A DNA stretch of 38,722 bases, from IMG/VR virus record IMGVR_UViG_2864804954_000002. One strand, given 5' to 3'. Position 1 is the first letter of the stretch. Every line of letters starts with the position of its first letter. This stretch comes from a virus. The translations under genes and the position numbers were made by a program. Shown one piece after another: positions 2,871-34,607 of this stretch. The notes under the pieces are model-generated. The model ran no database searches, had not been told where the DNA came from, and was given only the letters and a program-made list of their open reading frames with translations.

Positions 2871-2884
2871 TAATAGAGCTATTA
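2871..2884. repeat. Dispersed palindromic motif TAATAGAGCTATTA, exact copy 1
   Basis: Exact 14-mer, about 40 bp upstream of the early promoter -35. Confidence 0.9.
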
Positions 2885-2920
2885 ATAATTATAAATCATA
2901 TAAAAAACATTAGTTTATAG

Positions 2921-2949
2921 TTGATTTAGGTACAATGTACCTATATAAT
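2921..2949 (+). promoter_or_regulatory. Sigma70-type early promoter TTGATT-17-TATAAT with a 17-bp palindromic operator filling the spacer
   Basis: -35 TTGATT at 2921-2926 and -10 TATAAT at 2944-2949. The spacer TAGGTAC-aat-GTACCTA (2927-2943) is a perfect inverted repeat. Confidence 0.7.
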
Positions 2950-3045
2950 AGCAAGCATAAGGTGAAGAGATATAAAAAGCCTTAGAGGTGCAACGTGTAC
3001 CGACTGCCAGGACTAGCAGAAAACCTTAGTCTAGGATTTTACAAA

Positions 3046-3555
3046 ATGAACGCATTCGACTTTTCTAATAAAGCTTCTGATTCTTCTAAATTATTCCGTC
3101 TTGAAGCTTTCAGCTTTACTTTTGATTTTGGCTTAAACATCTATTTCGATGATATGGACGACCTTCGTGACATCATTGGCGATACAGAAATCGAGTTCTG
3201 GCAAGTTGAAGGATTGCGAGAAGACACGTACATGAACGTGGATAATTTTAAAGACCTTGAGACAGCTATAGAGCTAATCATGGAAGGGCATTTTCAAGAA
3301 GACCTAGACCTATTCAAACAACTAAAAAATGAGGGATATGTTAGAAATTTAGAAGATGCCCAAGAATGGCATGAAGAAAACCAATTCTGTGAAGATATGT
3401 CAGATTATGACTTCGGTCACTATCTTATGCACGATGTAAGCTGCATTGAGATCCCTGAAGCATTGCAAGGGTATATTGATTATGAAGCTTATGGTCGTGA
3501 TGCCTTAATAAATGACTTTGTACGTATAGGCAATTACATCTATAGCAACCATTAA
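3046..3555 (+). CDS. ardA: ArdA-like antirestriction protein (acidic)
   Basis: Very acidic 169-aa product. The C-terminal YIDYEAYGRDALINDF resembles the conserved ArdA C-terminal motif. AGGA lies 9 nt upstream of the ATG at 3046. The ORF track extends to GTG 2995, which has a GAGGTG 4 nt upstream and is an alternative start. Confidence 0.6.
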   Translation: MNAFDFSNKASDSSKLFRLEAFSFTFDFGLNIYFDDMDDLRDIIGDTEIEFWQVEGLREDTYMNVDNFKDLETAIELIMEGHFQEDLDLFKQLKNEGYVRNLEDAQEWHEENQFCEDMSDYDFGHYLMHDVSCIEIPEALQGYIDYEAYGRDALINDFVRIGNYIYSNH

Positions 3556-3569
3556 GGGGAGTTATAGAC

Positions 3570-3740
3570 ATGACTATTATTTCTTTATCTCCATGCACAT
3601 CTAAACTGCCTACAGTCAGCTTGTGTAAATTCTGCCGATCTGTTGTTAGTTTGAAATTTCAATATTTCGCAGGCTGTTTTAACTGTGCAAAAGTCTCTAG
3701 CAAGAATCAGGCTATAACTTTTATTGTTATAGGAGCTTAA
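3570..3740 (+). CDS. Small Cys-rich (zinc-ribbon-like) protein, 56 aa, not in the ORF track
   Basis: AAGGGGA lies 9 nt upstream of the ATG. Translation is MTIISLSPCTSKLPTVSLCKFCRSVVSLKFQYFAGCFNCAKVSSKNQAITFIVIGA, with CxxC...CxxC. Tightly packed between ardA and the next gene. Confidence 0.5.
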   Translation: MTIISLSPCTSKLPTVSLCKFCRSVVSLKFQYFAGCFNCAKVSSKNQAITFIVIGA

Positions 3741-3743
3741 AAG

Positions 3744-4061
3744 ATGAATGCACAAGTATTTAAATCTGAAGCTCTTAGCCGTTTAGCTGTTCGCCTTCCT
3801 GCTGCTGTTCCTGTTATGGCAAAGGTTGATATAGATAAAATTGTTCAAGTTGTAAAAGTTGAGTCAGGAGAGGTTTATATAATTTCCAAAGATACCAAAG
3901 GAAAATATGAAAAGCCATATCATGTTTGGATGATGCACAAATCGGGTTTTATTCTGAGATCTGCAAACGGTGTACTTGGTTATCACTCTGTTATTAGAGC
4001 TTTAAATGAACTTGAAAAAACGATTAAGCTAAAAGGACAACGTACCTTAAAATTGAATTAA
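3744..4061 (+). CDS. Hypothetical early protein (105 aa)
   Basis: ORF track entry. AGGAG lies upstream, and it starts 3 nt after the previous stop. No motif recognised. Confidence 0.6.
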   Translation: MNAQVFKSEALSRLAVRLPAAVPVMAKVDIDKIVQVVKVESGEVYIISKDTKGKYEKPYHVWMMHKSGFILRSANGVLGYHSVIRALNELEKTIKLKGQRTLKLN

Positions 4062-4072
4062 ATGATAATATC

Positions 4073-4099
4073 AAGCTCCTGAAACATGGAGCTTTTTTT
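4073..4099 (+). terminator. Intrinsic terminator/attenuator hairpin whose 3' arm contains the SD of the next gene
   Basis: AAGCTCC (4073-4079), 8-nt loop, GGAGCTT (4088-4094), then a T-run to 4099. The ATG at 4101 follows. Confidence 0.6.
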
Positions 4100-4100
4100 A

Positions 4101-4346
4101 ATGAGCAAATTTGAAAATATGACCTTTGAAAACTTTTTAATTGAAGCTCCTGAAGCAGATCATATAAAAGATCTTAGAATGGATCTGGGGTTATCTGCTG
4201 CTCAGTGTGCCAAACTTGCAGGACTTTCAGACGGTGCATTATGGCGTAAATATGAGTCAGGAGAAAGACAACCAAATAAACAAACATGGACTGTCTTTTT
4301 AATGGCTTCAGGTCAGCACCCTAATTTTAAACTGAATACAAAATAG
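4101..4346 (+). CDS. Small HTH (XRE/Cro-like or Aca-like) DNA-binding protein
   Basis: LGLSAAQCAKLAGLSDGALWRKYESGERQP is a helix-turn-helix pattern. The start was moved from 4086, which lies inside the hairpin, to ATG 4101, which has GGAG 9 nt upstream. Confidence 0.55.
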   Translation: MSKFENMTFENFLIEAPEADHIKDLRMDLGLSAAQCAKLAGLSDGALWRKYESGERQPNKQTWTVFLMASGQHPNFKLNTK

Positions 4347-4395
4347 AATCTGTATAGGTACTAAGTCAGTGCCTATACCCCTCAAAAAAAATCGC

Positions 4396-4491
4396 CCGCT
4401 TCTTTGCTCGTATAGTGCTTAGTCATATCCCTATTTTTATCTGATTTAGTTGTATGGTCCTGTTCCATCATGTGAAGTCGCAAAGAAGCGG
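4396..4491. repeat. Perfect 12-bp inverted repeat CCGCTTCTTTGC / GCAAAGAAGCGG enclosing 72 nt
   Basis: Arms at 4396-4407 and 4480-4491, in a 288-bp noncoding gap. It is preceded by the hairpin GTATAGG/CCTATAC near 4351-4377. Confidence 0.8.
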
Positions 4492-4634
4492 AAACGGCTA
4501 CTTTCTGCATGTGATTTGATACCTACGGCTGTTCTTTGACCGTTCACTTTAAATATCAGCTAATAGCTAATTGATTTAGTTTATCTTTCACACATACTAG
4601 CGTTACTTATAAAAACTATTCTCTTGGGGGGAAT

Positions 4635-5201
4635 ATGGCTGATTCAATCTTATTAACTCATTCAGATTTAAAATCTCTTGTTCAAAAAGCTATTGATAAC
4701 CGAGCTACAGTTGAGCTTTTAGATCCTAAACAAGCTTATTTCCAGTTAAAGTCTGCTTATGATTACATCCAATCTGAGCTGAAAGCTGAAGAATCTTTCG
4801 CTGCATGTCCTGTTGTTATTCGTGGTCGAGTAAGTTGCTATTCAATTATTGGTCAAGTTCATGTTCCTGCTACATTAATCGTTGATGTTGTTATGCATCT
4901 AGGTCTGATTGAAGATGAAGGATTGTTTGCTCTTACACTACATGAAAATGAAGAAGAGCCTACTGTAAATGTAAATGTAGTAGATGTTGTCTTTGATTCT
5001 CTTCAAGATCTTGATTTCGTTACTGAGCCTTTTGAACTACTTATTCCTAATACAGTAGTACATGGTCAATGTGATCTTCCTGAAGACTATATCTTGTTTA
5101 ACCTGAAAGACTTAACAAGTCAGTTATCTAATCATGTAGATTTCAGTACTATTCATACAGCTATTGAAAATATGTCTGTAGCCATTGCGAATAGCAAATA
5201 A
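4635..5201 (+). CDS. Acidic hypothetical protein (188 aa), last early gene
   Basis: GGGGGGA lies upstream of the ATG. The product is rich in D/E. No motif recognised. Confidence 0.6.
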   Translation: MADSILLTHSDLKSLVQKAIDNRATVELLDPKQAYFQLKSAYDYIQSELKAEESFAACPVVIRGRVSCYSIIGQVHVPATLIVDVVMHLGLIEDEGLFALTLHENEEEPTVNVNVVDVVFDSLQDLDFVTEPFELLIPNTVVHGQCDLPEDYILFNLKDLTSQLSNHVDFSTIHTAIENMSVAIANSK

Positions 5202-5231
5202 AAAAGCCCCTAATCTGTAAAGGCTAAGGGC
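5200..5231 (-). terminator. Intrinsic terminator of the long minus-strand late/lysis operon
   Basis: On the minus strand, GCCCUUAG...UUAGGGGC forms 8 bp including 2 G.U pairs and is followed by U6. It lies just after the endolysin stop. Confidence 0.6.
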
Positions 5232-5239
5232 GTGTGTTA

Positions 5240-5647: not shown

Positions 5648-5649
5648 TA

Positions 5650-8255: not shown

Positions 8256-8294
8256 TCCTAATTAGGTTTTAATTTTTATTGTTTTTAACTCTAT

Positions 8295-8308
8295 TAATAG
8301 AGCTATTA
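8295..8308. repeat. Dispersed motif TAATAGAGCTATTA, exact copy 2 (embedded in the palindrome CTCTATTAATAGAG)
   Basis: Exact 14-mer between the TerL stop (8309) and the tail fibre start (8255). Confidence 0.9.
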
Positions 8309-10277: not shown

Positions 10278-10320
10278 TCTTATTTTTTATTATTTAAATT
10301 TTATTATTTGATGTAATAGA

Positions 10321-10342
10321 AAAGGGAGATAAATCTCCCTTT
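10321..10342 (-). terminator. Hairpin terminator downstream of the OMP moron
   Basis: AAAGGGAGA-taaa-TCTCCCTTT, a perfect 9-bp stem flanked by A/T runs. Confidence 0.6.
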
Positions 10343-10372
10343 TACAATGTGCTTAAACTATTGAACGTATAA

Positions 10373-11119
10373 TTAGAAGTTGTAACGAATACCTAATGAG
10401 TAATCATGTGATACTAAATCTGCTGTCGTTTTCATATCGGAATTTGGTCCAAAGAAAACAGAATTATTCGTATTAAACTCAATTTCGCCAGCATCCACAT
10501 AACGATAACCTAAATCAAGCGCAACATTCTCAGTTACTTGATAAGCTACACCAACGTTAGCTGACCAAGTAAAAGTATTGCTTGTATCAGACTGACTGTC
10601 GCTTTCTATGAAAAACTCTGGATTTAATGATTGCTTGTTTTTAATACGAGTAACACCAACACCCGCTCCTAAGTACGGAGTGAATTTAGAGGTGTTTTTA
10701 AAGTCATAGTAACCATTTAACATTAAAGATTGGCTTCTAAGTTCATTTACAAGCAAACCAGGAAAACCTTCAGGTAGTGGAATTGAATCAGAAAAATCAG
10801 GAGTGTTTACTACAAATAAGTCTGCTCTTGGAGTAAATTTAACAGTATCTTTATATGTATATTCTAATTCAGCTCTAGCATTTACTTTGCTAATTTTACT
10901 GAAATCAAAACCAACAGCTAGTGCGATATTTGGGTAAACAGTTTCATCAACATCTTTGTTATGATAAGTCAAATCTACATCTGCTTCTGGGTTAAACTGA
11001 TATTCAGTATTTTCAAATTTTGTGTCGCTCACGCCTGCTTTTAATGATGTATAAAAACCACTATCTGCATAAGCAAAACTTGAAGTTGCAATGACAGTTG
11101 CTAATAAAATGCGTTTCAT
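10373..11119 (-). CDS. Outer-membrane beta-barrel protein (Lom/Ail/OmpW-like moron)
   Basis: Signal peptide MKRILLATVIATSSFAYA. Alternating beta-strand pattern and a C-terminal ...GIRYNF aromatic end typical of OMP barrels. Confidence 0.75.
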   Translation of the reverse strand: MKRILLATVIATSSFAYADSGFYTSLKAGVSDTKFENTEYQFNPEADVDLTYHNKDVDETVYPNIALAVGFDFSKISKVNARAELEYTYKDTVKFTPRADLFVVNTPDFSDSIPLPEGFPGLLVNELRSQSLMLNGYYDFKNTSKFTPYLGAGVGVTRIKNKQSLNPEFFIESDSQSDTSNTFTWSANVGVAYQVTENVALDLGYRYVDAGEIEFNTNNSVFFGPNSDMKTTADLVSHDYSLGIRYNF

Positions 11120-13855: not shown

Positions 13856-16390
13856 TTATGCTGCTTGTTTCCAAGCACATTTAGCCAATGTCGCCATAGA
13901 TTTAGCGAGTAGCTGTATGTTGTCTTGTTCTTTTTGTAGCTTCTGTTGCCATTGTTGAGCTGTTAGATCTTCACCTGTTTTTTTAGATGAAATGACTAGA
14001 TCAGGATTAGCAATAAGCTTGTCTATTGTTTGTTGTCCTTTAGGGATTTGAGATAGGTATCCAAAAGCTCGACCTTCATCAAATATACGATCTAAAGCTG
14101 TTTCTAGTTCTTTATTGCCTTTATGGTCTACAAAATTACTCTTATTTGAACGTCCTACGTGAATAGATTTAGTTTGATGTGTTTGATGTGCATCATCTAC
14201 CGTTCTACGCACGTATGAGCCACGATATTGAAGCTCTTGAACTGTATTTCCATCCTTGTCTTTATAAGTACGTGTCAGTTCTTTGTGATATTTCTTGTCT
14301 TCATAGCGTTGCTTTTCTTTCCAGTCTGCTGCAATACTTTCGTCAGGTTTAAACTCTTTTGCAGGATCATCTACCCTATCCTTCACTTTAATCGTATTTG
14401 ATGTATGAGGTACTGATACAGTCTCACTTTCTGCAAAAACATCATCAATCAATTTACTGAGTTCTGCATCTGACATAGGTTTATAGTTTGGATCAGGAAG
14501 ATCAGGAACTAGATTTCCATGTTCATCTAATACCATGTTTGGCAGATCTAGCTGTTCTGTTGTCAGATCTCCCATTACTTCATGTTCCATATTTCGCTGT
14601 TCAAAAGCAGCTATATCGTGTGGACTGATAAACAAATCATCTACTTCAGGAAGGTTATCTAGGTCTAAACGATCTACTGTACCTTCATAGCTTGATTCAG
14701 GCTTAATAGGAGCTTGTTCTACAGTTGATGCTGTTTCAGATTCAAAAACAGATTTGTGAGTTGATCCTGAACCGCCATAATGTTGAGCTGTAATATCATC
14801 TATCTTCTTAGTGAAGTTGTGTATTGCATTGCCTATGGTTGCATCTTTAGGAATACCGTTAATACTCATTAAATGATCAGGATTCTTACTAAACTTACTA
14901 ATGACAGCTCTAGCTGATTGGTTAGAATTGTCTTTAATTGCTTTGAATACAATTTCTGCCCCTCCCCTGCCAAGTAAGTGAGGAATATAGATCTGTGAAC
15001 CTGTTAGAACTACACCTGTCTTGTCTTCGATATACTTAATATTGGATTTAGTATGTTTGATACCAAGTTTGATCTGTGTATTTAGATCATGTCTATTAGC
15101 TGCTGTACCACCTTCTGCTTGCCAGGTTGAATCAATAAACTGAAATACACCTGTAGCTGAAGACTTCTTATTTTTGATTGTAGGACTAAATGTACCTCTA
15201 CTTTCAAAATGAGCTAGGGCTACAATTGTTCTTGAATCTGCATCTGATAAGCCTTTAGCCGTTGCTTCATCATAAATACGTTTTTGTGTACCTGTAGCAG
15301 TAAAAGGTTTAACTTGTGGTTGTTTTGGTGTGCTTGTACCAGGATACTTCATCCCAGGGTTAAGCTTTTCCCATATTATTTTTCTATTCTGTTCAGTAGC
15401 TTCAGCTAATGTCTGTTTTTTATTAGTTGCTGTCTTAATAGAGCTATTATTTTGAATATGCTTTTTAACATCATCTAAAGTCTTGAGCTGTCCACCTGTA
15501 GCTTCAGAGATATTGACCTTCTCTCCCTTCATCACTTGATCAATCGCTTGATTCAAATTAGCTTCATGTTGAGCTAAATCATCTACTGTCTCTGCCACGT
15601 TAGGCATACTAGATACATCGGCATCTGCCTGAGCCTGTTCAACTGTTGCATTGAAATCTGCTTCAGCTTTATGGACCTCTGCTTCAGGTAAGTCTGCATT
15701 CCCTTTAGCATTCATATAACGTCCTGCTGCAAAGAAGGTAGAGCCAATAGCCATGTTCATAAAGATCGCATTAGGATCTGTAGCCATATCTTTATACATC
15801 TGACCTTGCTTCCCGTATCCCTTGCTATCTAAATAAGCTCCTTCTGCATACATCATGCCTTGTCCTGCTGCTGTAGGTGCAACAACTAAAGCAGCATAGT
15901 CTGCAACTAGAGACTTTTTAAATACATTAGATACAGGTAAAAAGGCTAAAGCAGCGTTTGTAGCTCCATAAATATTAGATGCTGTATCTGCTGTGTCTTG
16001 GTCTACGCCAAGTTGCTGAGTTAATTTTGTATGCTCTGTAGCTCTTGTACCAAGTCCAACTGTAGCAGCCATTCCATAAGGTCCTAATGGTGCGCCTACT
16101 GCCCCTGCTGATACAACTTCAGTAATACCTGAAGCGATATGTCCTGCTGTACCTTGATTAAGTGGAGTGAAAGCTTCATTTGCTTGTTGCATACGTCTAT
16201 CTGCAACTTCATCACCTTCTACAAATCGGCTTGCAGCATTAGATACGGATGTAACACCTTTAGCGACACCTGATACTGTGCCTAATCCAATGTCTGCTAG
16301 TGTTCCACGTTTAAACTTTTTAGGATCTGTTAGTTTCGTTTCATCAAAGGCTAAGTCTTGTTCTGTAAATTCTCCACTTAATAAGCCCAT
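13856..16390 (-). CDS. Internal virion protein with lytic transglycosylase (SLT) domain
   Basis: AHFESRG...ATGVFQFIDSTWQ carries the catalytic Glu and the GxxQ motif of SLT domains. Sits in the ejection-protein cluster. Confidence 0.75.
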   Translation of the reverse strand: MGLLSGEFTEQDLAFDETKLTDPKKFKRGTLADIGLGTVSGVAKGVTSVSNAASRFVEGDEVADRRMQQANEAFTPLNQGTAGHIASGITEVVSAGAVGAPLGPYGMAATVGLGTRATEHTKLTQQLGVDQDTADTASNIYGATNAALAFLPVSNVFKKSLVADYAALVVAPTAAGQGMMYAEGAYLDSKGYGKQGQMYKDMATDPNAIFMNMAIGSTFFAAGRYMNAKGNADLPEAEVHKAEADFNATVEQAQADADVSSMPNVAETVDDLAQHEANLNQAIDQVMKGEKVNISEATGGQLKTLDDVKKHIQNNSSIKTATNKKQTLAEATEQNRKIIWEKLNPGMKYPGTSTPKQPQVKPFTATGTQKRIYDEATAKGLSDADSRTIVALAHFESRGTFSPTIKNKKSSATGVFQFIDSTWQAEGGTAANRHDLNTQIKLGIKHTKSNIKYIEDKTGVVLTGSQIYIPHLLGRGGAEIVFKAIKDNSNQSARAVISKFSKNPDHLMSINGIPKDATIGNAIHNFTKKIDDITAQHYGGSGSTHKSVFESETASTVEQAPIKPESSYEGTVDRLDLDNLPEVDDLFISPHDIAAFEQRNMEHEVMGDLTTEQLDLPNMVLDEHGNLVPDLPDPNYKPMSDAELSKLIDDVFAESETVSVPHTSNTIKVKDRVDDPAKEFKPDESIAADWKEKQRYEDKKYHKELTRTYKDKDGNTVQELQYRGSYVRRTVDDAHQTHQTKSIHVGRSNKSNFVDHKGNKELETALDRIFDEGRAFGYLSQIPKGQQTIDKLIANPDLVISSKKTGEDLTAQQWQQKLQKEQDNIQLLAKSMATLAKCAWKQAA
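15436..15449. repeat. Dispersed motif TAATAGAGCTATTA, exact copy 3 (inside a CDS, encodes NNSSI)
   Basis: Exact 14-mer within 13856..16390. Confidence 0.9.
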
Positions 16391-16403: not shown

Positions 16404-18431
16404 TTATTTCCAAATTCTCATAATGTACGGTTTTGCTGTTTTAGGATTCTTCATCACTTTGCCATTAGGCTGTAAGAACATGAACCATCCAGTAGCATTA
16501 GGTACAGGTTGTACTACGTGTGTTTTTAAAATGTCTTCGTCAGGAGGAAGATAGCCTGTCTCTTTTCGATACTCAGTTCTGAAATGATTTTTAATATGAT
16601 CTTCAAAGCTTGTTTGAGTAAAGCCATACGGCATAAAGATGTAATTAGTATTTTTACCTAACTTCTGCTTATACGTTCCACCTGTAGCTATATCGAATGC
16701 CTGTTTAGCCATTTCCTTGTTGATGATTGGATTGCCTTTATCATCACGTTTAATGATGTTCTCACCACGTTTAGCGAGTCCTAGATAAATGGAATAAGCT
16801 AAGTTTTGATAAGCTCGATGTTCATTTGTACCAATCGCTGTAGCATTGCCAAATTCAGATTGAATCGCATTATGAAACTCTTTCTCTACGCCAAGTACAG
16901 AAGCTTGTCCTGCATTGAGGATCTGTTTACCTTCTAAAGCTACTTCTGCTGCTCTGATATTTGTACCGTATAAGGTAATATCTAATTGGTTAAGTTTAGC
17001 GATACCCATATAGTCATAAGCATTCTTTTCACCACCGATTAAGCTGAAATACTCTTTCTGAGCTTCTTTATTCTTTCCTGCCATTTTGGTTAGATCGGTT
17101 AGCATTGCCTTCTGTTGTTTAGGCGTTGCATCAAAATAACGATCTTTGAATGCTGTACGTTCTGACTTATTCCATTGGATCAGTGAGCCTACGCCACCAT
17201 TTGCTTTCTTTTGATCTGCTAGTAGATCTGTTGTTATCTGAGCCTTTTTAAAGTCAATTTGACCCGATCCAATTTGTTCAGGCGTAACGGTATATAGCTT
17301 ATGTCCTGTTTGAGATTGAACTGCTGCTACAGGATCATCATTTGCTCGTTGTTTAGATGTTGAAGCAATATTTTTAAATACGTTCAGCTTCTTCTGTAAG
17401 AGAGTCGCATCTTCTTGTGGTGTATTTTCCAGTTCTGAAGTCAGTCTTGCAATACTACGTTCCTGTTCAATTGGTGAAGCATCTCTAAACTTTTGAGCGT
17501 CTTTATTTAAAGCAATCGCTTCTTTGACTTCTGACTCATACTTTGTTCCTTTTACTGCTTCTAGTGTTTGATTAACCAAACTTTCAGATAGTGGATAGCC
17601 TGTAAAAGCATCTGCTACAAAGTCTTTGGTTAGCTGTGCATGTTCCTTATCCAGCTCCTTAGCTTTAATTTCAATACCTCTATTAATACGGCTAATAGCT
17701 GATTCAATATTTGCCTTATATGCATCTCTAGTCTCAATTTTCATGTGAGGAAAGACTGTATCTACATTCTTATGTAGTTCCTGTAGAGCTGTAATATCTT
17801 CTTGAGCTTCTAGGTTACTAAGTACACCCTTACCATCTGATAGATCTCTACGTTCATTCCATTTCTGAAGTGACTCTGTACGCTGTTCAGGCGTTAATAC
17901 AGGATTACGTTTAACTGTATCTTCATATAATGCAAAAGCCTGATCCCTATTTTCAAGTTTAAGCGTAGCTTCTCCTACTTGTTCAAAGTCTGCGTTGATG
18001 GACCTACGTTCTGTTTCAAAAGCCAATGGTTTAATGCCTGCTTGAGAGTCGTTATACATCTTCTCTGAATAGAAGTTGAATCGTTCTTTCTGCTTCTCAG
18101 GAATACGACCTACATAGTTTTGAGCAAGTTCATCTGTACGTTGTCTTAAATAGCTTTTAGCTGTAGCTTCATCAAACTCACCTGTAACTAATTTCTGTTT
18201 AGTCTCAGTAATATAGTCCTGGTACTCAGCTCCATATTTAGAAGCTTCAATGTTGAACTGATACTGATCCTTTTCATCTTGGATCTTCTGTTCTTTGATA
18301 GCGTATTGTTGACCTACTTGAGCCAAGTTCCCAACTGCTTGAGCAACTTGTCCTGCTCCTGAATCTAATACACGACCAGGTTGAGCTTGTGGCATCACAT
18401 TACCAAAGTTACCTAAAGGAATCTTTGCCAT
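16404..18431 (-). CDS. Internal virion protein (about 675 aa)
   Basis: Start set to ATG 18431 (MAKIPLGNF), 2 nt after the upstream stop, with GGGTGGG upstream. The ORF track uses GTG 18443. Confidence 0.6.
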   Translation of the reverse strand: MAKIPLGNFGNVMPQAQPGRVLDSGAGQVAQAVGNLAQVGQQYAIKEQKIQDEKDQYQFNIEASKYGAEYQDYITETKQKLVTGEFDEATAKSYLRQRTDELAQNYVGRIPEKQKERFNFYSEKMYNDSQAGIKPLAFETERRSINADFEQVGEATLKLENRDQAFALYEDTVKRNPVLTPEQRTESLQKWNERRDLSDGKGVLSNLEAQEDITALQELHKNVDTVFPHMKIETRDAYKANIESAISRINRGIEIKAKELDKEHAQLTKDFVADAFTGYPLSESLVNQTLEAVKGTKYESEVKEAIALNKDAQKFRDASPIEQERSIARLTSELENTPQEDATLLQKKLNVFKNIASTSKQRANDDPVAAVQSQTGHKLYTVTPEQIGSGQIDFKKAQITTDLLADQKKANGGVGSLIQWNKSERTAFKDRYFDATPKQQKAMLTDLTKMAGKNKEAQKEYFSLIGGEKNAYDYMGIAKLNQLDITLYGTNIRAAEVALEGKQILNAGQASVLGVEKEFHNAIQSEFGNATAIGTNEHRAYQNLAYSIYLGLAKRGENIIKRDDKGNPIINKEMAKQAFDIATGGTYKQKLGKNTNYIFMPYGFTQTSFEDHIKNHFRTEYRKETGYLPPDEDILKTHVVQPVPNATGWFMFLQPNGKVMKNPKTAKPYIMRIWK

Positions 18432-22216: not shown

Positions 22217-22250
22217 AAAGCCCCCTACCCTGTTACAGATAAGGAGCTTT
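22217..22250 (-). other. Stable hairpin just downstream of the capsid gene (attenuator or mRNA stabiliser candidate)
   Basis: On the minus strand, AAAGCUCCUUA...UAGGGGGCUUU forms 11 bp including 2 G.U pairs. No U-run follows on the minus strand. Confidence 0.45.
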
Positions 22251-22271
22251 GATTTTTTGTTAGATCTATAG

Positions 22272-22283
22272 ATAGAGCTATTA
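22272..22283. repeat. Dispersed motif, 12/14 copy (ATAGAGCTATTA), overlaps the capsid stop codon
   Basis: agATAGAGCTATTA. Confidence 0.8.
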
Positions 22284-23156
22284 AATCTTAAACTTAAACG
22301 CTACTACTTTGAGTTCATTTGTCCTAACAGCCCCTACGGACTCGATATGCCCGATGCTGTGGAAACGGTTAGCTGTTTCAACTTCTACAATCTTTAATGG
22401 AGAGATAGAGTTAATACCTACTTCTACTGCTGATTTCGTGTAAGCCACACCTGTTGCAGATAAACCATCTGCTGCTGTAATGCCTTCATAATGAACCCAC
22501 TGGAAACCTAAGAAGTTGCTGATCTCACCACGTTGGAGCATTTGTCCTGCAAGGTAATCTGCTGAAGTGAGAGTCGTATCTGCTAGTAAAGCATTTAGTA
22601 AGTCAGCGTTATACGTTACATAGATTTCTTCATCGTCAGCCAAGTTTTTAGTGAACTTAGTACGGATGTCGATAAGCAATTTTTTAGTGATCGGAGCTGT
22701 AGTTGTACCTAAGATTTGAGTAGCAGGAAGAGCTACGTTTGTATAAGTATCTGCACCAACTTCTTTACGTGGAGCGTTACCAAGAAGAGCGTTATATACA
22801 ACTGAGTCTACTTTGCGATTCCATTTTGAATGTAAGCGAGTTAATAGTTGATCTTGTGGATTAGCTTTTAATTTAGGTAGATCCTGAATAGCCAGGCGAC
22901 TGAAATTAGAGAAGTCATTCATTGTTGCTAAACGAGAAGCGAATGATGCATCTACATAAGATGTGTTACCGAAACGATCAGGAGTTGCCAGTACATCACC
23001 TAAAGTTCCCATTTCGTTTACGCTGAAAGAGCTGCCAGTTACAGAACCGATATTAGTTACTGTTGATAATAGTTTAGATTCTTTTTGTTCTAATAGTGCT
23101 ACATAAGTATCTGCGTACTGACGTACAAATACTGAATCAATGCTTGAATATGCCAT
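22281..23156 (-). CDS. Major capsid protein
   Basis: Follows the scaffold gene. Preceded by a long leader and followed by a hairpin. 291 aa. Confidence 0.65.
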   Translation of the reverse strand: MAYSSIDSVFVRQYADTYVALLEQKESKLLSTVTNIGSVTGSSFSVNEMGTLGDVLATPDRFGNTSYVDASFASRLATMNDFSNFSRLAIQDLPKLKANPQDQLLTRLHSKWNRKVDSVVYNALLGNAPRKEVGADTYTNVALPATQILGTTTAPITKKLLIDIRTKFTKNLADDEEIYVTYNADLLNALLADTTLTSADYLAGQMLQRGEISNFLGFQWVHYEGITAADGLSATGVAYTKSAVEVGINSISPLKIVEVETANRFHSIGHIESVGAVRTNELKVVAFKFKI

Positions 23157-23207
23157 TGTTTAAGTGTCCTTTTAATTAAGATTTTTTTATTGTTTTTTTA
23201 GTTTTGT

Positions 23208-23227
23208 TAGAGCTATTATTAGCTCTA
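23208..23227. repeat. Inverted pair of the motif core: TAGAGCTA-ttat-TAGCTCTA
   Basis: Perfect 8-bp arms, about 55 bp upstream of the capsid start. The left half is a 12/14 copy of the 14-mer. Confidence 0.85.
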
Positions 23228-23369
23228 TTTTTTATTGTGGTTGTAGAGCTTGTTGTTTGTCTCAGTTATCCATATCGGGCTGATAAGAAGTGATACAGGT
23301 CACATGCTCTACACAAGGACTCTGTATGGCTTAAAGCTTTATCTGAACGCCACTTCAGGAGCTATTTGT

Positions 23370-24104
23370 TTACTTTCTTAGGCTGTCGTAATACGAATCA
23401 ATCTGAGCCTTCACTGACTTATGATCAGGATGTTTAGGATTAAAGAACGCTTCACTACGCATTAAAGATTGGATGTCTACGTTGACAGGTGTACCGTTAT
23501 TGATCGGCTTGTCTTCTGTCATCTGTGATCCAAAGTAAGCAGCCATTTTGATAAAGGCTACGTTGTTTCCAATTAAAGGATTGTTGATCTGTTCGTCTGT
23601 AATGCCACATGCTCTAGCAGCTTTAACTGCATTAAATATGTTCTTCTCATAATCCTGACCCCAATCAGATTGAAGTGTCTGTACTGTTGTATCCGTATCT
23701 ATCTGTGAGCTATTGGATACCAGGTCTACTGCACGTTTATCATACTCACTCAAAAGGAAGTCGAGTTGTTTGTTTGTGATCCCATGCTTGTGAGCTTCAG
23801 TTAAAAACTCTTTATTTGATTCATCTGCTTTAAATTCTTCAAAGTCAAAGTCTTCACGTTCTAGTTTGTACTCATCTACAGATTTAGGAGCAACTTCTCC
23901 TGTACCTACTTTCTTTTCCAGGTAGCTGTATGATTCATTCATCTTGGCTACAGTGGCTTTATAGTCTACTGATCCATCTTCTGCTGTTACTTTAAACTTC
24001 TCAGGAATAGCTGTTTCATTAGAGCTATTATTACTTATACTTAATACTGTAGATGCTGTTGTATCTTGTTCAATTGCTTGTGGTTGTTCTAAGTTGTCTG
24101 TCAT
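23370..24104 (-). CDS. Scaffolding protein
   Basis: Acidic, helical 244-aa protein between the portal and capsid genes. Confidence 0.55.
   Translation of the reverse strand: MTDNLEQPQAIEQDTTASTVLSISNNSSNETAIPEKFKVTAEDGSVDYKATVAKMNESYSYLEKKVGTGEVAPKSVDEYKLEREDFDFEEFKADESNKEFLTEAHKHGITNKQLDFLLSEYDKRAVDLVSNSSQIDTDTTVQTLQSDWGQDYEKNIFNAVKAARACGITDEQINNPLIGNNVAFIKMAAYFGSQMTEDKPINNGTPVNVDIQSLMRSEAFFNPKHPDHKSVKAQIDSYYDSLRK
24017..24030. repeat. Dispersed motif, 12/14 copy (inside the scaffold CDS, encodes NNSSN)
   Basis: cAtTAGAGCTATTA. Confidence 0.75.
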
Positions 24105-26197: not shown

Positions 26198-26385
26198 TAC
26201 TTTGTTTCCATGTTTGTTGTTTTATATGTTGTTGGGCGTTTCTTGCGACCAGGCTTCTTGTCCTTCGGATCAAGCCAAACGATGAAGCTGTTTGTCTTGA
26301 GCAAAGCCAAGATCCTTAACGCTTGTCTAGGTGCGTCTTACCGTTCTCTTAGTTCTAAAAGATACGTGGCATCCAATGTTGCAAA

Positions 26386-26412
26386 ATGCGTGTGCGTGTA
26401 CGTGCGTACATA
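26386..26412. repeat. 27-nt perfectly alternating purine-pyrimidine tract (atgcgtgtgcgtgtacgtgcgtacata)
   Basis: Read directly, inside a GC-richer 200-bp patch of the late-operon upstream region. Confidence 0.9.
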
Positions 26413-26597
26413 GGTATATAGAAGGGCAATCTAATTCTTTATCTAGCACTTGGATCTATGCAGTCTTTTCTCTAGTTCTTGTTATTGTTGTACTGTAGTC
26501 GTTGTATTTATAAGTATTAGATATTCTCTTTTTTAAAAGGTTAAATGTCTGTTTTAAATACAGATCTTGTTTATTATTATTATGTTAATAGCTGTAT

Positions 26598-26611
26598 TAA
26601 TAGAGCTATTA
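26598..26611. repeat. Dispersed motif TAATAGAGCTATTA, exact copy 4 (part of the near-palindrome TAATAGCTgTATTAATAGAGCTATTA)
   Basis: Exact 14-mer, about 400 bp upstream of the first late gene. Confidence 0.9.
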
Positions 26612-26865
26612 AAGAAAGCTCAGGATAGAAAGAGAAAAACTAAACTGAGCTAAAAGGGGATCTTATAGCCTACCTAGATAAGCTATTAGTTAAGGGTGAA
26701 ATAAAGGATATATAAAATGACTGACCTAGTTTTTATTATTACTCTTATTCAGCCTAAGTCGTTCTAAATAAGTAGTGAGAAATATATCACACTATTCTAT
26801 AAATGTCAAGCCACAAACACTATATGTAGTATGTTTGTATTTAATAAACCACTATATATTGTTTT

Positions 26866-27626: not shown

Positions 27627-27650
27627 TTAATAGGTCTTGTAATAGGTCTT
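27627..27650. repeat. Tandem 12-bp direct repeat TAATAGGTCTT(g/t) x2 in a divergent promoter region
   Basis: Read directly. GGTTAAT x2 also occurs at 27710 and 27725, closer to relB. Confidence 0.8.
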
Positions 27651-27755
27651 TTAATTAGTTATATTGTATTAAGGCTTGTAGCGTATCGTAATAAAACAAG
27701 GTCGGTTCTGGTTAATTGGCTACAGGTTAATGCAGAACATAATGAGTAAATTGGT

Positions 27756-31989: not shown

Positions 31990-32149
31990 TCTCAACATAA
32001 AGAAAACAATAAGAACATTAGTGGGGCATAGTCAGCCCATATTTAAAAACCTCTCTGACTATAAACAAAACACAACTCAAAATATTAAGTCTGCATCCAA
32101 TCAGGATTATAAGCGGACTCAAAATTATTTTATTCAAAGGATATAAATT

Positions 32150-32917
32150 ATGACTTCATTATCATTACAAACTCAAAATTCTACTCCATTTAATACAGCT
32201 ATTATTACAGCTAATACCGTACCAACTATGACAAGCTTGGAAATTGTAGAGTTTATTAATAACCACAGACAAGCTAACGGTAACGAAACAGTTTTAGCCC
32301 ATTCAGACTTTTTGAAAAAAGTGCCTGAAGTTCTTGGTCATTTAGTTGCAGGAAATTTTTCCTCCATCTACAAAGACAGTCTTAACCGTGATAAGCCATG
32401 TTATGTATTCCCAAAACGTGAAGCTTGTTTAATGGCAATGTCGTACAGCTATGACTTACAAGCAGAAATCTATGATCGTATGACAGCAATGGAACAGATG
32501 GTACTTCAACCAAAACTACCAAGTAATTTCAAAGAAGCTTTACAGTTCTTAATTGAAGCAGAAGAGCAGAAAGAGCAACTAGCTTTACAAGTAGCTCAAC
32601 AACAACAAGTAATTGAAGTGATTCAGCCTAAAGCAGATGTGTATGACATCATTGCTAATCGTGACAACACATACACCATAAGAGATACAGCTAAACTTCT
32701 TAAAATGCGTCCTAAAGATCTTACTGATTGGCTATTAGCTAACGGATGGATATATGGAAAGACTTCAGCAACTTACAAACCATTTGCTGCACATGACCGT
32801 AACCATTTAAAACTTGTTGCTTCAAACTACGGAACTCAAGTTCGAGTGACAGGTAAAGGCTTAGTTTGGTTAGCACGTAAACTGAAAGTAGAGCTTGAAT
32901 CAAGTGATTTTGAATAA
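32150..32917 (+). CDS. Rha-family N-terminal / KilA-C (ANT) C-terminal phage regulatory protein (antirepressor-like)
   Basis: The N-terminal TMTSLEIVEFINNHR... is Rha-like. The C-terminal TIRDTAKLLKMRPKDLTDWLLANGWIY is KilAC-like. AAAGGA lies 8 nt upstream. Confidence 0.65.
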   Translation: MTSLSLQTQNSTPFNTAIITANTVPTMTSLEIVEFINNHRQANGNETVLAHSDFLKKVPEVLGHLVAGNFSSIYKDSLNRDKPCYVFPKREACLMAMSYSYDLQAEIYDRMTAMEQMVLQPKLPSNFKEALQFLIEAEEQKEQLALQVAQQQQVIEVIQPKADVYDIIANRDNTYTIRDTAKLLKMRPKDLTDWLLANGWIYGKTSATYKPFAAHDRNHLKLVASNYGTQVRVTGKGLVWLARKLKVELESSDFE

Positions 32918-33173
32918 GTTTAAGGGAGCATGGGAGGAACTAGATCAGTTCCTTTCTACCTATGATTTATCAATGCTTACTGAGATGGATAAGGACCAGG
33001 TACATAGCCTATTGGAAGAGATCTATCCTGAAAGAATCTCATCAAAACGCATCATCAAATATAAAGACCACAAAAAGAAAGAACATACACATACTGAGTA
33101 TTTCATTAACGCTGAAGAAGCTGAAGCAATACTCAAAAGGGCGAGGGAACTAAGCATTCCCTTTAAAGATTAA
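32895..33173 (+). CDS. Hypothetical protein (start uncertain: TTG 32895 or GTG 32904)
   Basis: ORF track entry. No ATG near the 5' end. Confidence 0.4.
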   Translation: MNQVILNKFKGAWEELDQFLSTYDLSMLTEMDKDQVHSLLEEIYPERISSKRIIKYKDHKKKEHTHTEYFINAEEAEAILKRARELSIPFKD

Positions 33174-33185
33174 CCAGGACCAGGA

Positions 33186-33500
33186 ATGAAAAAATTATCA
33201 AAAAAAGAGTACAACAAAATCGTAAAAGCAAAGATCTTACAAACAGGTTTATATAACGGTAGGTCAGTTGAAGAAGCTGAAATTTGCGATGAATTATTTG
33301 AACACTTATCAGACATCAAATCCGACTACAAGAAAGGTGTATTAACAGCCTTCAATGCTGATGCTGAAATGGCATACAACTTCCTCAAATATGAAAACGA
33401 ATATGCAGATGACCTAGACATTGATTATGGTATTGATGACTTGTACGGATCATATTCAGACAACATGAAAGACATTAAAACACACTTTGGAGATTACTAA
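33186..33500 (+). CDS. Acidic hypothetical protein (104 aa)
   Basis: AGGACCAGGA lies upstream of the ATG. ORF track entry. Confidence 0.55.
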   Translation: MKKLSKKEYNKIVKAKILQTGLYNGRSVEEAEICDELFEHLSDIKSDYKKGVLTAFNADAEMAYNFLKYENEYADDLDIDYGIDDLYGSYSDNMKDIKTHFGDY

Positions 33501-33664
33501 TGATCCCTACATTGATTACGGTTTACGCTCTTTTGGCGTTCCTTATGACGCTACAGCTCGTTCAAGTAAAGCTGTCACCAACACAAAATACAACTCTATT
33601 AAAACTTGTATTGCTTCAATGCTTAGGCGTTAAGCGCATACACGAAAACAATTTTAAAAGTTAA
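33500..33664 (+). CDS. Small hydrophobic protein (54 aa), not in the ORF track
   Basis: TAATG coupling to the upstream gene. MIPTLITVYALLAFLMTLQLV is a TM-like segment. Followed by a terminator-like hairpin. Confidence 0.4.
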   Translation: MIPTLITVYALLAFLMTLQLVQVKLSPTQNTTLLKLVLLQCLGVKRIHENNFKS

Positions 33665-33672
33665 TCCTTTAG

Positions 33673-33707
33673 CCTTACATTCGATTTGAGAGTAGGGTAT
33701 TTTTTTT
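33673..33707 (+). terminator. Putative intrinsic terminator ending the rightward operon
   Basis: CCTTAC...GTAGGG (6 bp, one G.U pair) followed by T8. Confidence 0.45.
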
Positions 33708-33834
33708 GCCTAACTTTTAATAGTGCTTAATATTATATAATTGGATTTATGGTTTAAAGCTCATCTATATTCTTTGTAGAAAGACTGTCCATATTTCACA
33801 GTATATTAGATGTAGTGGTATAGCGAATCTCTCA

Positions 33835-34503
33835 TCATAATTTTAATTTTCTATTTAGTTCATCAACTTCATTTTTCATATAATCTATTAAATATGTTGA
33901 CCTGAAATTAAATAATTCAAAGTGATGTATGAATGAAGTAACGTCATTTTCGCTAAATCCTTGTATTAGTACATCAATGTACCACTTATAAATATTTAAT
34001 TTTTCATAAATGTCATCTAATTCCTTACTGTCTTTTTCAAATGTAACGCTATTCTCTAGTGTCGAATAATATTTCATTGTAATATCTGATAAGTTTCTTC
34101 GCTTTTGTGCTAATTCATACTTATCGCCTTGATATTCATATAGCATTTCGTTTAAATCATTAATATTGTTATTGGTGATATCTATATATAAATCTCTGAA
34201 ATGTATATCAAAATATTGTAATAACTCTTTGAACTTAATTACTTCAATTTTAATTGATTTTAAATCGTCTTTTTCTAATTGGATATTATATTGTACTTTC
34301 CAATTAATAAAACCGATGATAGCAACAATTGGGGTAAGTACATAGGAGGTTGTAGTAATAATAGTATTGATTCCATTCATGCTAAAGGCACAAACAAGTG
34401 ATTTACCTTGACATATAGCCATATATTGAAAAAAACCAATTACCGAAAGGACAATGAGATATACCAATAAATAATAACCTATATATTTTTCTATATCTTT
34501 CAT
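33835..34503 (-). CDS. Membrane protein (two N-terminal TM helices plus a helical cytoplasmic domain) in a markedly AT-rich gene
   Basis: The hydrophobic segments YYLLVYLIVLSVIGFFQYMAI and TSYVLTPIVAIIGFINW. Lone minus-strand gene, visibly more AT-rich than its neighbours. Confidence 0.6.
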   Translation of the reverse strand: MKDIEKYIGYYLLVYLIVLSVIGFFQYMAICQGKSLVCAFSMNGINTIITTTSYVLTPIVAIIGFINWKVQYNIQLEKDDLKSIKIEVIKFKELLQYFDIHFRDLYIDITNNNINDLNEMLYEYQGDKYELAQKRRNLSDITMKYYSTLENSVTFEKDSKELDDIYEKLNIYKWYIDVLIQGFSENDVTSFIHHFELFNFRSTYLIDYMKNEVDELNRKLKL

Positions 34504-34595
34504 ACAACCCCCTAAAATCTAAGCCACAAATCATACCCTAACCTGTTACAAAATAGAGAAATATTTAACTGGATTAGCATTATTAATATAATTAA

Positions 34596-34607
34596 AATAG
34601 CTCTATT
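34596..34607. repeat. Dispersed motif, 12/14 copy in inverted orientation (AATAGCTCTATT), at the predicted parA promoter +1 region
   Basis: A putative TTTAAC-17-TATAAT promoter lies at 34564-34592. The motif lies 4 nt downstream of the -10. Confidence 0.75.

Follow-up and report, generated by a model that had tools for sequence, protein, structure and literature searches.

A dispersed 12-bp near-palindrome in an Acinetobacter phage-plasmid, probable recognition unit of the RHH partner of a type Ib ParA

Genome and partition genes

The window – the whole 38,722-nucleotide stretch of IMG/VR virus record IMGVR_UViG_2864804954_000002 – represents a circular genome of 38,627 bp, since its ends share a 95-bp repeat. 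It is an Acinetobacter phage-plasmid with T7-like structural genes. The ORFs of more than 600 amino acids encode the fibre, tail tube B, internal virion proteins (matched to phrog_684, phrog_11561 and phrog_992) and a helicase-like Rep; no gene for a single-subunit phage RNA polymerase was found among the ORFs of the window.

The parA gene (34635–35249, plus strand) encodes a type Ib-like deviant Walker-A ATPase of 204 amino acids that lacks a DNA-binding domain at its N-terminus and has a KGGVGKT motif and Pfam matches to AAA_31, CbiA and MipZ. Directly downstream, overlapping the parA stop, is an ORF of 152 amino acids (35249–35707, plus strand) for a candidate ParB-like centromere-binding protein, predicted to have a disordered N-terminal tail and an RHH core at about residues 60–105. 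In Pfam, 22 of 25 members of this protein family match TacA1 and 19 of 25 match NikA-like. In the AF2 model the 10-residue blocks across residues 71–110 have a mean pLDDT of 82–88, residues 1–64 are below 50, and a helix pair (70–83 and 87–103) is preceded by a short extended segment. The top Foldseek matches to the model were nearly all RHH proteins (Arc, AtaR, TacA1, NikA, CopG), none of them significant (E of at least 0.2).

The repeat unit and its arrays

The first-pass annotation described a 14-mer, TAATAGAGCTATTA, dispersed through the genome far more often than chance would allow. The four exact copies (2871, 8295, 15436 and 26598) are all on the plus strand, compared with none in 100 dinucleotide-preserving shuffles. 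The copies matching at 12 of 14 positions were also found where it had placed them, at 22270, 23205, 24017 and, inverted, 34595. With up to two mismatches there are 18 matches in the window versus 0.97 expected, a count that takes in reverse-strand self-matches of the palindrome. Additional near copies are at 23217 (minus), 26586 (minus, one mismatch) and 32191 (plus, one mismatch), and weaker ones at 17672, 19190 and 27640. With low-complexity sequence excluded, the motif is the top over-represented 10-mer in the window and in six relatives.

The true repeat unit is a 12-bp near-palindrome, AATAG-CT-CTATT (general form AATAG-NN-CTATT). In almost every case a weaker second unit follows at a distance of exactly 12 bp, with a mean arm score of 6.4 (background 2.9). 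The window has nine to ten arrays, all of two units except the parA operator, a single unit with a possible degenerate element. The three doubled palindromes noted earlier at 8290, 26586 and 23208 have the structures first described, and the reported orientation bias – the same way relative to local transcription in 7 of 8 copies – was reproduced. The strongest unit of every late-region array reads CT on the sense strand, and in the relative L003 this strand carries 10 of 10 AATACAACTAT-type units. A first-order Markov model of sense-strand composition did not predict the GCT bias, nor is this bias accounted for by a DNA-binding function that is symmetric.

The earlier placement of copies between TerL and fibre, at the capsid stop, upstream of the capsid and portal operon, and at the parA promoter also stands. 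The putative parA operator unit, AATAGCTCTATT (34596–34607, plus strand), closely follows the −10 of a predicted sigma70-like promoter for parA (34565–34592), which is the classical position of a type Ib operator. It also covers the −35 of a divergent promoter-like site (34612–34585), and some 22 bp further downstream is TAGAGCAT, which may be a degenerate second element. The unit is kept in all relatives whose motif is of the GCT class and is inverted in three of them (L005, L011 and L074).

The following arrays are on the minus strand, in or near structural genes or upstream of ardA. The leader of the late (portal) operon has AATAGCTCTATT AATACAGCTATT (26587–26610), 165–190 nt downstream of a near-consensus sigma70-like promoter (26809–26781); relatives also have an array here, with two direct CT units in L004 and L007 and AATACAACTAT in L003 and L078. 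In the N-terminal part of the scaffold gene the array is in frame (24006–24029; AAT AGC TCT AAT GAA ACA GCT ATT), and L078 has AATACAACGAT at this position, directly before a conserved I-P-D-K-F-K. The array AATAGAGCTAAT AATAGCTCTAAC (23206–23229) is upstream of the capsid gene, about 50 bp from its start (23156); relatives retain a unit here within variable flanks, with GAATACAACGAT in L003 and AATAGAACTAT in L008 and L010. At the capsid stop codon (22281–22283) is AATAGCTCTATC TATAGATCTAAC (22259–22282); the codon overlaps the first unit by two bases and is inside the original 14-mer, a conserved G+C-rich hairpin (about 22217–22250) follows, and L003 has two copies of AATACAACTAT 24 bp apart. 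Between the TerL stop (8309) and the tail-fibre start (8255) is AATAGCTCTATT AATAGAGTTAAA (8284–8307), the unit invariant in L001, L002, L005, L007 and L009 while its flanks vary, with AATACAACTAT...AATACAACAAT in L003. Upstream of the ArdA operon, AATAGCTCTATT ATTACAACTATA (2860–2883) has its centre some 45 bp upstream of the −35 element in the predicted promoter of ArdA (2921–2949) and overlaps a leftward promoter-like site (2885–2858); in L001 and L004 the unit near ardA has the opposite orientation relative to ardA.

A second in-frame array (15425–15448, minus strand) is inside the gene for the 844-amino acid internal virion (gp16-like) protein. The window encodes N-N-S-S-I-K there (AAT AAT AGC TCT ATT AAG) and L003, at the orthologous codons, K-N-T-T-I-N (AAA AAT ACA ACT ATT AAT). 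On the plus strand, AATACAGCTATT ATTACAGCTAAT (32192–32215) occupies codons 15–22, at the 5’ end, of the antirepressor (KilAC) gene, with a 12-bp period found by TRF. This array is also present in L001, L002, L005, L007 and L009, and in the last four it is kept in an Ant only 29–44% identical to that of the window. A variant 12-bp tandem pair, AAAAGACCTATT ACAAGACCTATT (27629–27652, minus strand), lies between orf115 and the Phd/YefM-RelE genes; its arms fit, its centre (AC) differs, and its membership is uncertain – it could be the operator of another protein. Only the arrays at parA and near ardA overlap promoter-like sites, and aside from the late-leader array the others are at no predicted promoter.

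Variation of the motif among relatives

Conservation in related genomes, proposed earlier as a check on the motif, was found: about 20 relatives, with capsid identity down to 62%, keep arrays at the same positions, including the two in-frame sites inside structural genes. The sequence of the unit can change nonetheless. L003 has a capsid 95% identical and a Rep 98% identical to those of the window, yet has AATACAACTAT at the array positions, including the gp16-like codons, and other relatives carry AATAGAACTAT instead.

Across differing ParA backgrounds, the variant tracks the RHH core of the ParB-like protein, and it does not track the type of ParA, Rep, XRE repressor, antirepressor or capsid. 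There is a natural two-by-two swap, in which two ParA/N-tail types are combined with two RHH types. The RHH strand GTAIN occurs with ATACAAC(T/G)AT both in L003 and L012, which have an L010-like ParA, and in L078 and L079, which have an L008-like ParA. The strand GTNLT occurs with AATAGAACTATT in L010 and L065, which share one ParA type, and in L080 and L081, whose ParA is only 43% identical to that type. Within the GCT class the beta-strand varies (GRLASVP, GRLISVP, GGLASVP, GGNTTVP, GKHLTVP, GKRITVP), two RHH subtypes only 44% identical overall have the same motif, and no residue-to-base code could be derived from the strands compared. L008 is a hybrid: its strand is GTNLT, but its operator is CAATACAACTATTG and its dispersed sites are of mixed type. 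As the par region directly adjoins Ant-orf104, linkage could account for some of the co-variation.

The N-terminal tail tends to follow the type of ParA, a feature also known from omega/delta of pSM19035 (PMC3074150). Its first 22 or so residues are near-identical in two GCT-class RHH subtypes that share a ParA (at least 97% identical), with a whole-tail identity of 62%, while tails paired with L008-like ParA are 37–52% identical to each other and at most 37% identical to others.

Chromosomally integrated relatives whose 21.6-kb loci gave no ParA or ParB-like match do not have the dispersed motif. The RHH type of the window is shared by three non-phage plasmids (L148, L150 and L151), which have the operator at parA and 5–7 tandem 245-bp repeats, each with a 12-bp-phased triple unit; no tandem repeat cluster of this kind was found in the window. 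The non-phage Acinetobacter plasmids CP123920, CP094557 and CP045136 have the same Rep-ParA-RHH backbone, with a ParA 84–85% identical to that of the window, and like the window they have the RHH strand GRLASVPLYY, the parA operator CAATAGAGCTATTG and AATACAGCTATT units. Unlike in the phage-plasmids, these units are concentrated in 5–7 tandem 245-bp repeats near rep and are not spread through phage genes.

Several other candidate binders were considered. An XRE immunity repressor, one of the regulators suggested in the first-pass annotation, is excluded because relatives with an unrelated repressor or none keep the motif, and because L003, with a 73%-identical repressor, has switched it; the ParB-like protein itself could have a regulatory role. 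No correspondence with the motif was seen for Ant, Rep or the serine recombinase, and the HTH86/ArdA operon has no match in five genomes that still carry arrays. The units do not follow the type of Rep, as replication iterons would: the Rep proteins of the window and L003 are 98% identical while the motif differs, and L002 and L009 have no homologue of this Rep and the same motif.

Interpretation of the dispersed arrays

The motif is probably the recognition unit of the RHH partner of a type Ib ParA, and its copies a distributed set of centromere and operator sites. Dispersed sites for the RHH partner of ParA had been the leading suggestion of the first-pass annotation, and the comparative evidence favours it because the variant follows the RHH core, plasmids cluster the same units, and integrated relatives without a par match lack the motif; from this we infer binding and centromere activity. 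An RHH dimer would read the centre of each 12-bp AATAG-CT-CTATT and a second dimer would occupy the weaker unit 12 bp away, a phasing that fits tandem RHH dimers. At the parA promoter the unit would act as an operator for autoregulation. The remaining arrays, eight or nine of them with two units each, are spread over the late operon, the antirepressor gene and the region upstream of ArdA and would jointly form the centromere (parS) of the plasmid prophage, taking the place of the clustered repeats found in non-phage plasmids that share these par genes. When bound, the arrays may in addition reduce transcription of the lytic, antirepressor and anti-restriction genes. That an array has only two units counts against a centromere, as the best-studied RHH system requires at least four contiguous repeats for ParA activation (PMC9499535).

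It is possible, though somewhat doubtful, that the dispersed arrays, though bound by the ParB-like protein, serve chiefly as operators or roadblocks that silence lytic, antirepressor and anti-restriction genes in the plasmid state. The protein would then be a global regulator comparable to omega of pSM19035 and KorB of RK2, with partition via the parA-proximal site only. This overlaps with the distributed centromere and does not exclude it. Arrays of two units are short for an RHH centromere (PMC9499535), and the parS sites of omega overlap promoters that omega represses (PMC3074150). The late-leader array is downstream of a near-consensus promoter, others are in the 5’ end of the antirepressor gene, over a promoter-like site near ardA and just upstream of the capsid and fibre genes, and orientation is biased relative to transcription. 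However, most late-region arrays do not overlap predicted sigma70 promoters, two are within coding sequence distant from promoters, and non-phage plasmids that share the par genes keep many copies in a non-coding cluster that resembles a centromere-type array, not an operator.

Readings without the ParB-like protein fare worse. A late-gene promoter or activator box for a phage-specific factor or polymerase, of the T7 or P1 Lpa type, would suit the placement of arrays ahead of the portal operon and of the scaffold, capsid and fibre genes, which is like that of T7 class III promoters, as well as the consistent sense-strand orientation and a variant that changes among relatives as promoter specificity does. 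It is nevertheless improbable, as the genome has no phage RNA polymerase and the units are also present in non-phage plasmids. P1 Lpa-type late promoters have a palindrome centred near −22 together with a −10 hexamer; here there is no −10-like element (TAnnnT) at a constant offset, the sequences after the arrays differ, and the nearest TAAAAT-like element is within about 10 nt of the Shine-Dalgarno in most relatives. One array is directly upstream of a terminator-like hairpin, and at parA the unit is just downstream of the −10 of an ordinary sigma70-type promoter and is inverted there in some relatives. A role in the late mRNA, as a processing site, a terminator or boxA-like anti-terminator, or a translational operator, is a shade less credible again. 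The sense-strand bias agrees with it, an 8-bp hairpin is possible at some arrays (behind TerL, for the window and L003 alike), and GCTCTATTAACA resembles the rrn boxA, GCTCTTTAACAA. Yet at other arrays the hairpin potential is missing or the loop variable (a 16-nt spacer in L002, for example), no U-tract is present and an A-run follows on the sense strand, the sites at parA and upstream of ardA occur in either orientation, and L003 and L010 have no GCTCT at all, which rules out a conserved boxA role. Across the window, no match to an Rfam family attained the gathering score. The earlier idea of an mRNA processing signal is likewise unsupported, given the lack of a consistent hairpin, the flipped parA unit of three relatives and the varying half-site spacing. 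Least likely of all is that the arrays are conserved junctions for cassette exchange by recombination among related phage-plasmids, with no protein-binding role. The breakpoints of a capsid cassette swap between the window and L009 (about 23250 and 22290) are near the capsid-upstream and capsid-stop arrays, and arrays are also found ahead of the hypervariable fibre gene and near the beginning of the variable Ant gene, but the concerted switch of variant with the RHH core, the parA operator position, the 12-bp phasing and the repeat cluster of non-phage plasmids are left unexplained. Recombination is more likely a by-product of conserved 24-bp islands.

Comparison with known systems

The window has a small Walker-A ParA, a downstream RHH protein and a flexible tail matched to ParA, as in type Ib. 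ParF/ParG of TP228 is of this type, and ParG is an RHH protein with a flexible N-terminal tail that binds arrays of short degenerate boxes with AT-rich spacers beside the par promoter (PMC3130281). The parH site is a single cluster about 100 bp long, upstream of parF, whereas the arrays of the window are dispersed.

The delta/omega system of pSM19035 (Inc18) pairs a small Walker-A ParA with an RHH centromere-binding protein whose unstructured N-terminal tail contacts ParA, and has several separate parS sites of short tandem repeats, direct or inverted, that double as promoter operators (PMC3074150). The window is similar in the pairing, the predicted disordered tail and the several separate short-repeat sites. 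Omega binds 7-bp heptads in runs of 7–10, with at least four contiguous repeats for ParA activation (PMC9499535), whereas the units of the window are paired 12-bp near-palindromes at about 9–10 loci genome-wide, most of them off predicted promoters and two in frame in structural genes, and the host element is a phage-plasmid.

The phage-plasmid N15 has four separate inverted-repeat centromere sites, IR1–4, for SopAB (PMC7205306). It too is a plasmid prophage with a centromere of several separate palindromic sites and not one cluster. SopB, however, is a large helix-turn-helix type Ia ParB that spreads from single 16-bp palindromes, while the candidate binder of the window is a small, type Ib-like RHH protein whose sites are phased pairs of units. 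In KorB-IncC of RK2/RP4, 12 dispersed palindromic OB operators are used for partition as well as for global gene control; KorB, an HTH ParB that depends on CTP, acts with KorA, and its sites are single 13-bp palindromes classed by promoter distance. The likeness is in a palindromic site of a partition protein scattered round the replicon: in the window the sequence of the putative par operator is copied elsewhere on the replicon, and the copies are conserved in relatives.

Genome organization and relatives

The window has a G+C content of 36%. Its ends carry an exact 95-bp direct repeat (1–95 = 38628–38722), an assembly overlap, and the genome is therefore circular with a true length of 38,627 bp. 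The minus-strand block 5240–26197 is a T7-like structural module (portal, scaffold, capsid, tail tube A and B, internal virion proteins, TerS, TerL and fibre), followed by the holin and endolysin genes. The remaining genes encode ParA (34635–35249) and, directly after it, an RHH-like partner (35249–35707), an XRE repressor, a serine recombinase, a helicase-like Rep, a KilAC antirepressor (Ant), Phd/RelE and the ArdA operon.

A Megablast search with the window found no match among GenBank phages. A search with the capsid returned eleven Acinetobacter plasmid records, mostly of 37–45 kb, with identities of 62–100%, and many more relatives were found in IMG/VR, GTDB and other assemblies; the window therefore belongs to a family of Acinetobacter phage-plasmids. 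In more than 20 of 100 sequence clusters from these collections, the longest contig measures 30–40 kb. Relatives (plasmids, viral contigs and chromosomal loci) are designated by L-numbers. Nothing was found in the literature on the motif described below or on the partition system of this family.

The segment 106–2230 (−), encoding a DUF262/HNH-like protein and a DNA methyltransferase, has no homologue in the ten plasmid relatives compared and is a variable island adjoining the ArdA region. Upstream of TerS, the late operon contains an inserted gene for an outer-membrane beta-barrel protein (10278–11119), which has a terminator of its own; in its place, L001, L007 and L009 have an array with AATAGAACTATT-type units. 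No tRNA genes were found in the window, and a tRNA-Gly(TCC) gene lies between scaffold and capsid in L010 (19408–19483) and L008 (37386–37461).

A 12-bp unit repeated in phase

The motif is strongly non-random in its occurrence. The first-pass annotation had claimed four exact copies of a 14-mer as beyond chance, and this was confirmed: TAATAGAGCTATTA is found at 2871, 8295, 15436 and 26598, always on the plus strand, and was absent from all 100 dinucleotide-preserving shuffles. The four near copies it had listed were all recovered among 18 matches at ≤2 mismatches (0.97 expected), together with further copies at 23217 (−), 26586 (−) and 32191 (+), and the doubled forms and positions relative to ORFs were as it had described. 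The motif is the most over-represented non-low-complexity 10-mer in the window.

On the late-gene sense strand the unit reads AATAGCTCTATT, with 5-bp arms, AATAG and CTATT, flanking an asymmetric CT. A weaker second unit, typically AATAcAGCTATT, lies 12 bp downstream of the strong one – the mean arm score at this offset is 6.4, compared with a background of 2.9 and at most 4.7 at all other offsets – and L003 has up to four units in 12-bp phase. Two-unit arrays are found upstream of ardA (2860–2883), between TerL and the fibre gene (8284–8307), in-frame in a gp16-like gene (15425–15448), at the capsid stop (22259–22282), upstream of the capsid gene (23206–23229), in-frame in the scaffold gene (24006–24029), in the late-operon leader (26587–26610) and at the 5' end of the antirepressor gene (32192–32215). 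A unit lies at the parA promoter (34596–34607), and there is a doubtful variant at 27629–27652.

At every late-region array the strong unit has its CT on the late sense strand. The parA unit is inverted in L005, L011 and L074, and the unit upstream of ardA occurs in both orientations among relatives. Strand composition was rejected as the cause of the bias, as a Markov model predicts the opposite orientation of the window-type (GCT) unit to be slightly commoner. Because the late sites are orthologous, independent orientation events are few (ca. 6). The bias may have a historical origin, or it may stem from an effect on transcription that depends on direction.

Conserved elements near the arrays

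The scaffold–capsid spacer has a non-coding element of ca. 130 nt (23235–23369, −) that hardly varies among relatives with capsid identities of 62–100%. The element includes a predicted 8-bp long-range pairing, TGTAGAGC/GCTCTACA, and one pair predicted by RNAalifold is kept despite changes on both sides; by eye, ATACAG/CTGTAT becomes ATACCA/TGGTAT outside the predicted structure. Just after the capsid-stop array is a G+C-rich hairpin, AAAGCTCCTTATCTGTAACAGGGTAGGGGGCTTT (ca. 22217–22250, −), conserved in eight of the nine genomes compared, L003 included, with a different hairpin-like sequence at this position in L010. By its position the window's hairpin recalls the T-phi terminator after the capsid gene of T7.

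A near-consensus sigma70-like promoter with an upstream TG (TTGACA-17-TATATT, 26781–26809, −) is separated from the first late ORF by an untranslated leader of ca. 580 nt (26198–26780), in which the array is directly followed by a conserved inverted repeat, AGATCTGTATTTAAAACAGACAT. A palindrome, TAGGTACA-A-TGTACCTA (2927–2943, +), occupies the spacer of the predicted ArdA-operon promoter (TTGATT-17-TATAAT, 2921–2949); it probably serves as operator for another regulator, perhaps the 86-aa HTH protein encoded in the ArdA operon. A 15-codon ORF, MMKVRSKNKLISYKI (2817–2864, +), ends just before the array upstream of ardA, and its DNA is conserved in L002, L005 and L009. Rfam gave no RNA family at gathering score for the motif or the window elements.

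In-place switching of the unit

The expectation that relatives would carry the unit at equivalent positions was borne out in L001, L002, L004, L005, L007, L009 and about 20 further contigs, with flanks that vary. In L003, whose capsid is 95% and Rep 98% identical to those of the window, there is no GCTCT unit at all. At the window's array positions this genome has AATACAACTAT, all 10 copies (≤1 mismatch) being on the sense strand, and L008 and L010 have AATA(G/C)AACTAT. The gp16-like gene encodes N-N-S-S-I-K at its array in the window, against K-N-T-T-I-N at the orthologous codons of L003; the DNA signal is thus selected at the expense of protein sequence. The conserved scaffold–capsid pairing, close to the arrays, is unconverted in L003, and switching is thus specific to array units. 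An array-like pair, AATACCTCTATT AATACGGCTAAT, at 17673–17696 (+, antisense to a gp15-like gene) was rejected as a site: it is conserved in L005, L007 and L009, but since the orthologous L003 sequence is not converted to the L003 motif, this is probably mere coding conservation.

Between the window (22290–23250) and L009 (34500–35700), nucleotide identity drops from ca. 90% to ca. 60% across the capsid gene only. The breakpoints of this capsid swap are close to the capsid-upstream and capsid-stop arrays, which places the arrays at mosaic (cassette-swap) junctions. Two further arrays, the one preceding the fibre gene and the one at the 5' end of Ant, likewise border hypervariable genes.

The motif variant follows the RHH core

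At the parA operator and at the dispersed sites, the motif variant tracks the RHH core of the protein encoded after parA. Cores with the beta-strand GTAIN go with ATACAAC(T/G)AT, both in L003 and L012, which have an L010-like ParA, and in L078 and L079, which have an L008-like ParA. Cores with GTNLT go with AATAGAACTATT in L010 and L065 and also in L080 and L081, whose ParA is 43% identical to that of L010. Core identity is 52–68% within a motif class and 31–53% between classes, while the N-terminal tail tends to follow the ParA type instead. RHH cores set against ParA and tail types amount to a natural domain-swap experiment. L008 is a hybrid, and an exception to the pairing of strand and motif. 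The GCT class, with the window-type unit, has several strands (GRLASVP, GGLASVP, GGNTTVP, GKHLTVP and GKRITVP); because these are so diverse, no simple residue code could be read from the beta-strand, and such a code was rejected.

Pfam TacA1 and NikA-like, both RHH families, match most members of the protein family, and a profile search of PDB sequences gave only weak DUF1778 matches. In the AF2 model, residues 1–64 are a disordered tail, and a confident helix pair comes after a short extended segment. The top Foldseek matches, none statistically significant, were nearly all RHH proteins: Arc (TM 0.67–0.78, rmsd 2.5–3.2 Å), then AtaR, TacA1, NikA and CopG.

Resistance plasmids and integrated relatives

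Three non-phage Acinetobacter resistance plasmids (L148, L150 and L151) share the Rep–ParA–RHH backbone, with ParA 84–85% identical and the strand GRLASVPLYY. Each has CAATAGAGCTATTG at parA, one AATACAGCTATT unit just after rep, and 5–7 tandem 245-bp repeats (L148, 19383–20692; L150, about 14400–15400; L151, about 14080–15560), every one with AATACAGCTATT GATACAGTTATT GAAACAGC in 12-bp phase. The copies are 99% identical to each other in L148 (TRF) and differ between plasmids. This repeat array is a probable clustered centromere of classical look, built from the window's units. No repeat cluster of this type was found in the window.

Integrated relatives were also compared, namely the A. corruptisaponis chromosomal loci L013 and L015 and the similar viral contig L039 (portals 46–47% identical). 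Their 21.6-kb loci have no dispersed motif and no ParA or ParB-like match; the scaffold–capsid gap is about a dozen bases, and an ordinary terminator lies within ca. 20 nt after the capsid gene. A 9-mer scan of other ParA-bearing viral contigs found no par-operator dispersal comparable to that of the window; in L091 an unrelated 9-mer occurs at six places. At 40311–41926 in L149 (CP040057), the partner of a ParA with 68% identity to that of the window is of the ParB/RepB/Spo0J type and not an RHH protein, so related ATPases combine with both kinds of centromere-binding protein.

A probable distributed centromere and operator set

Several other readings of the motif were considered. A phage-polymerase promoter was rejected, as no RNA polymerase gene is present among the window's ORFs, and a sigma70 or P1-type late promoter, as no −35/−10 elements stand in fixed register. 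The likeness to a boxA or nut-like element is gone in the L003 and L010 classes. The suggestion of an mRNA processing signal fails along with that of a terminator, since there is no U-tract and the spacing varies. As to the binder, neither the XRE repressor (CI operator), Ant, Rep (iterons), the serine recombinase nor the capsid tracks the motif variant across genomes, and the HTH86/ArdA operon has no match in L008, L010, L065, L078 and L080, all of which still have arrays. The earlier proposal of a site for a late-gene or immunity regulator thus loses its immunity-repressor part. A regulatory role, which could involve the late-operon leader, the antirepressor 5' end and the region upstream of ardA, is plausible.

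The remaining proposal, a dispersed centromere bound by the RHH partner of ParA, is favoured: the motif tracks the RHH core, the same units are clustered in plasmids with the same par module, and integrated relatives with no par match have no motif. The best-supported interpretation of the sequence comparisons is a distributed RHH-type centromere/operator set in a phage-plasmid; the scattered two-unit arrays are the sole parS candidates in these genomes. In such a type Ib partition system the RHH protein would bind the phased 12-bp units, and the unit at the parA promoter would be an autoregulatory operator. This unit directly follows the −10 of the predicted parA promoter and covers the −35 of a divergent promoter-like site, a position that agrees with the autoregulation suggested in the first-pass annotation. 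What makes the set unusual are its in-frame sites, the concerted switching in place and the sense-strand polarity.

A packaging-size limit might, speculatively, have led to the replacement of a 1.3-kb cluster by 24-bp inserts. A joint reading, which we consider rather unlikely as a whole, is that a phage-plasmid limited by capsid size dissolved its centromere into about ten 24-bp mini-arrays within its own lytic genes, two of them in-frame in structural proteins. Segregation of the prophage and repression of late, antirepressor and anti-restriction genes would then both fall to one RHH protein; the RHH core would have been swapped by recombination and all sites then rewritten in place, and the sense polarity would mark a direction-dependent transcription roadblock. 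If true, core swaps and site rewriting would form a natural genome-wide series of protein–DNA co-evolution.

If the distributed centromere is confirmed, these phage-plasmids would offer a clean natural model of how type Ib (RHH) partition can work when the centromere is spread out and not clustered. RHH–DNA recognition could be decoded from the three motif variants and several RHH cores that occur in genomes otherwise nearly identical; if the core sets the preference, an L003 or L010 core is expected to favour AATACAACTAT or AATAGAACTAT, respectively. Since arrays are present in both the antirepressor gene and the leader of the late operon, there may be a link between plasmid maintenance and lytic control. 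The same par module is found on Acinetobacter plasmids with blaNDM-1, tet(Y) and sul2, which makes its cis sites relevant to the stability of these plasmids and to incompatibility typing.

KorB of RK2 is among the closest known systems. So are N15, with four separate centromere palindromes (PMC7205306), and omega/delta of pSM19035, in which an RHH protein with a flexible, ParA-contacting tail has three separate parS sites at promoters (PMC3074150). Omega needs at least four contiguous repeats to activate ParA (PMC9499535), whereas the arrays of the window have two units; even the clustered version in the resistance plasmids, however, consists of separated triple units.
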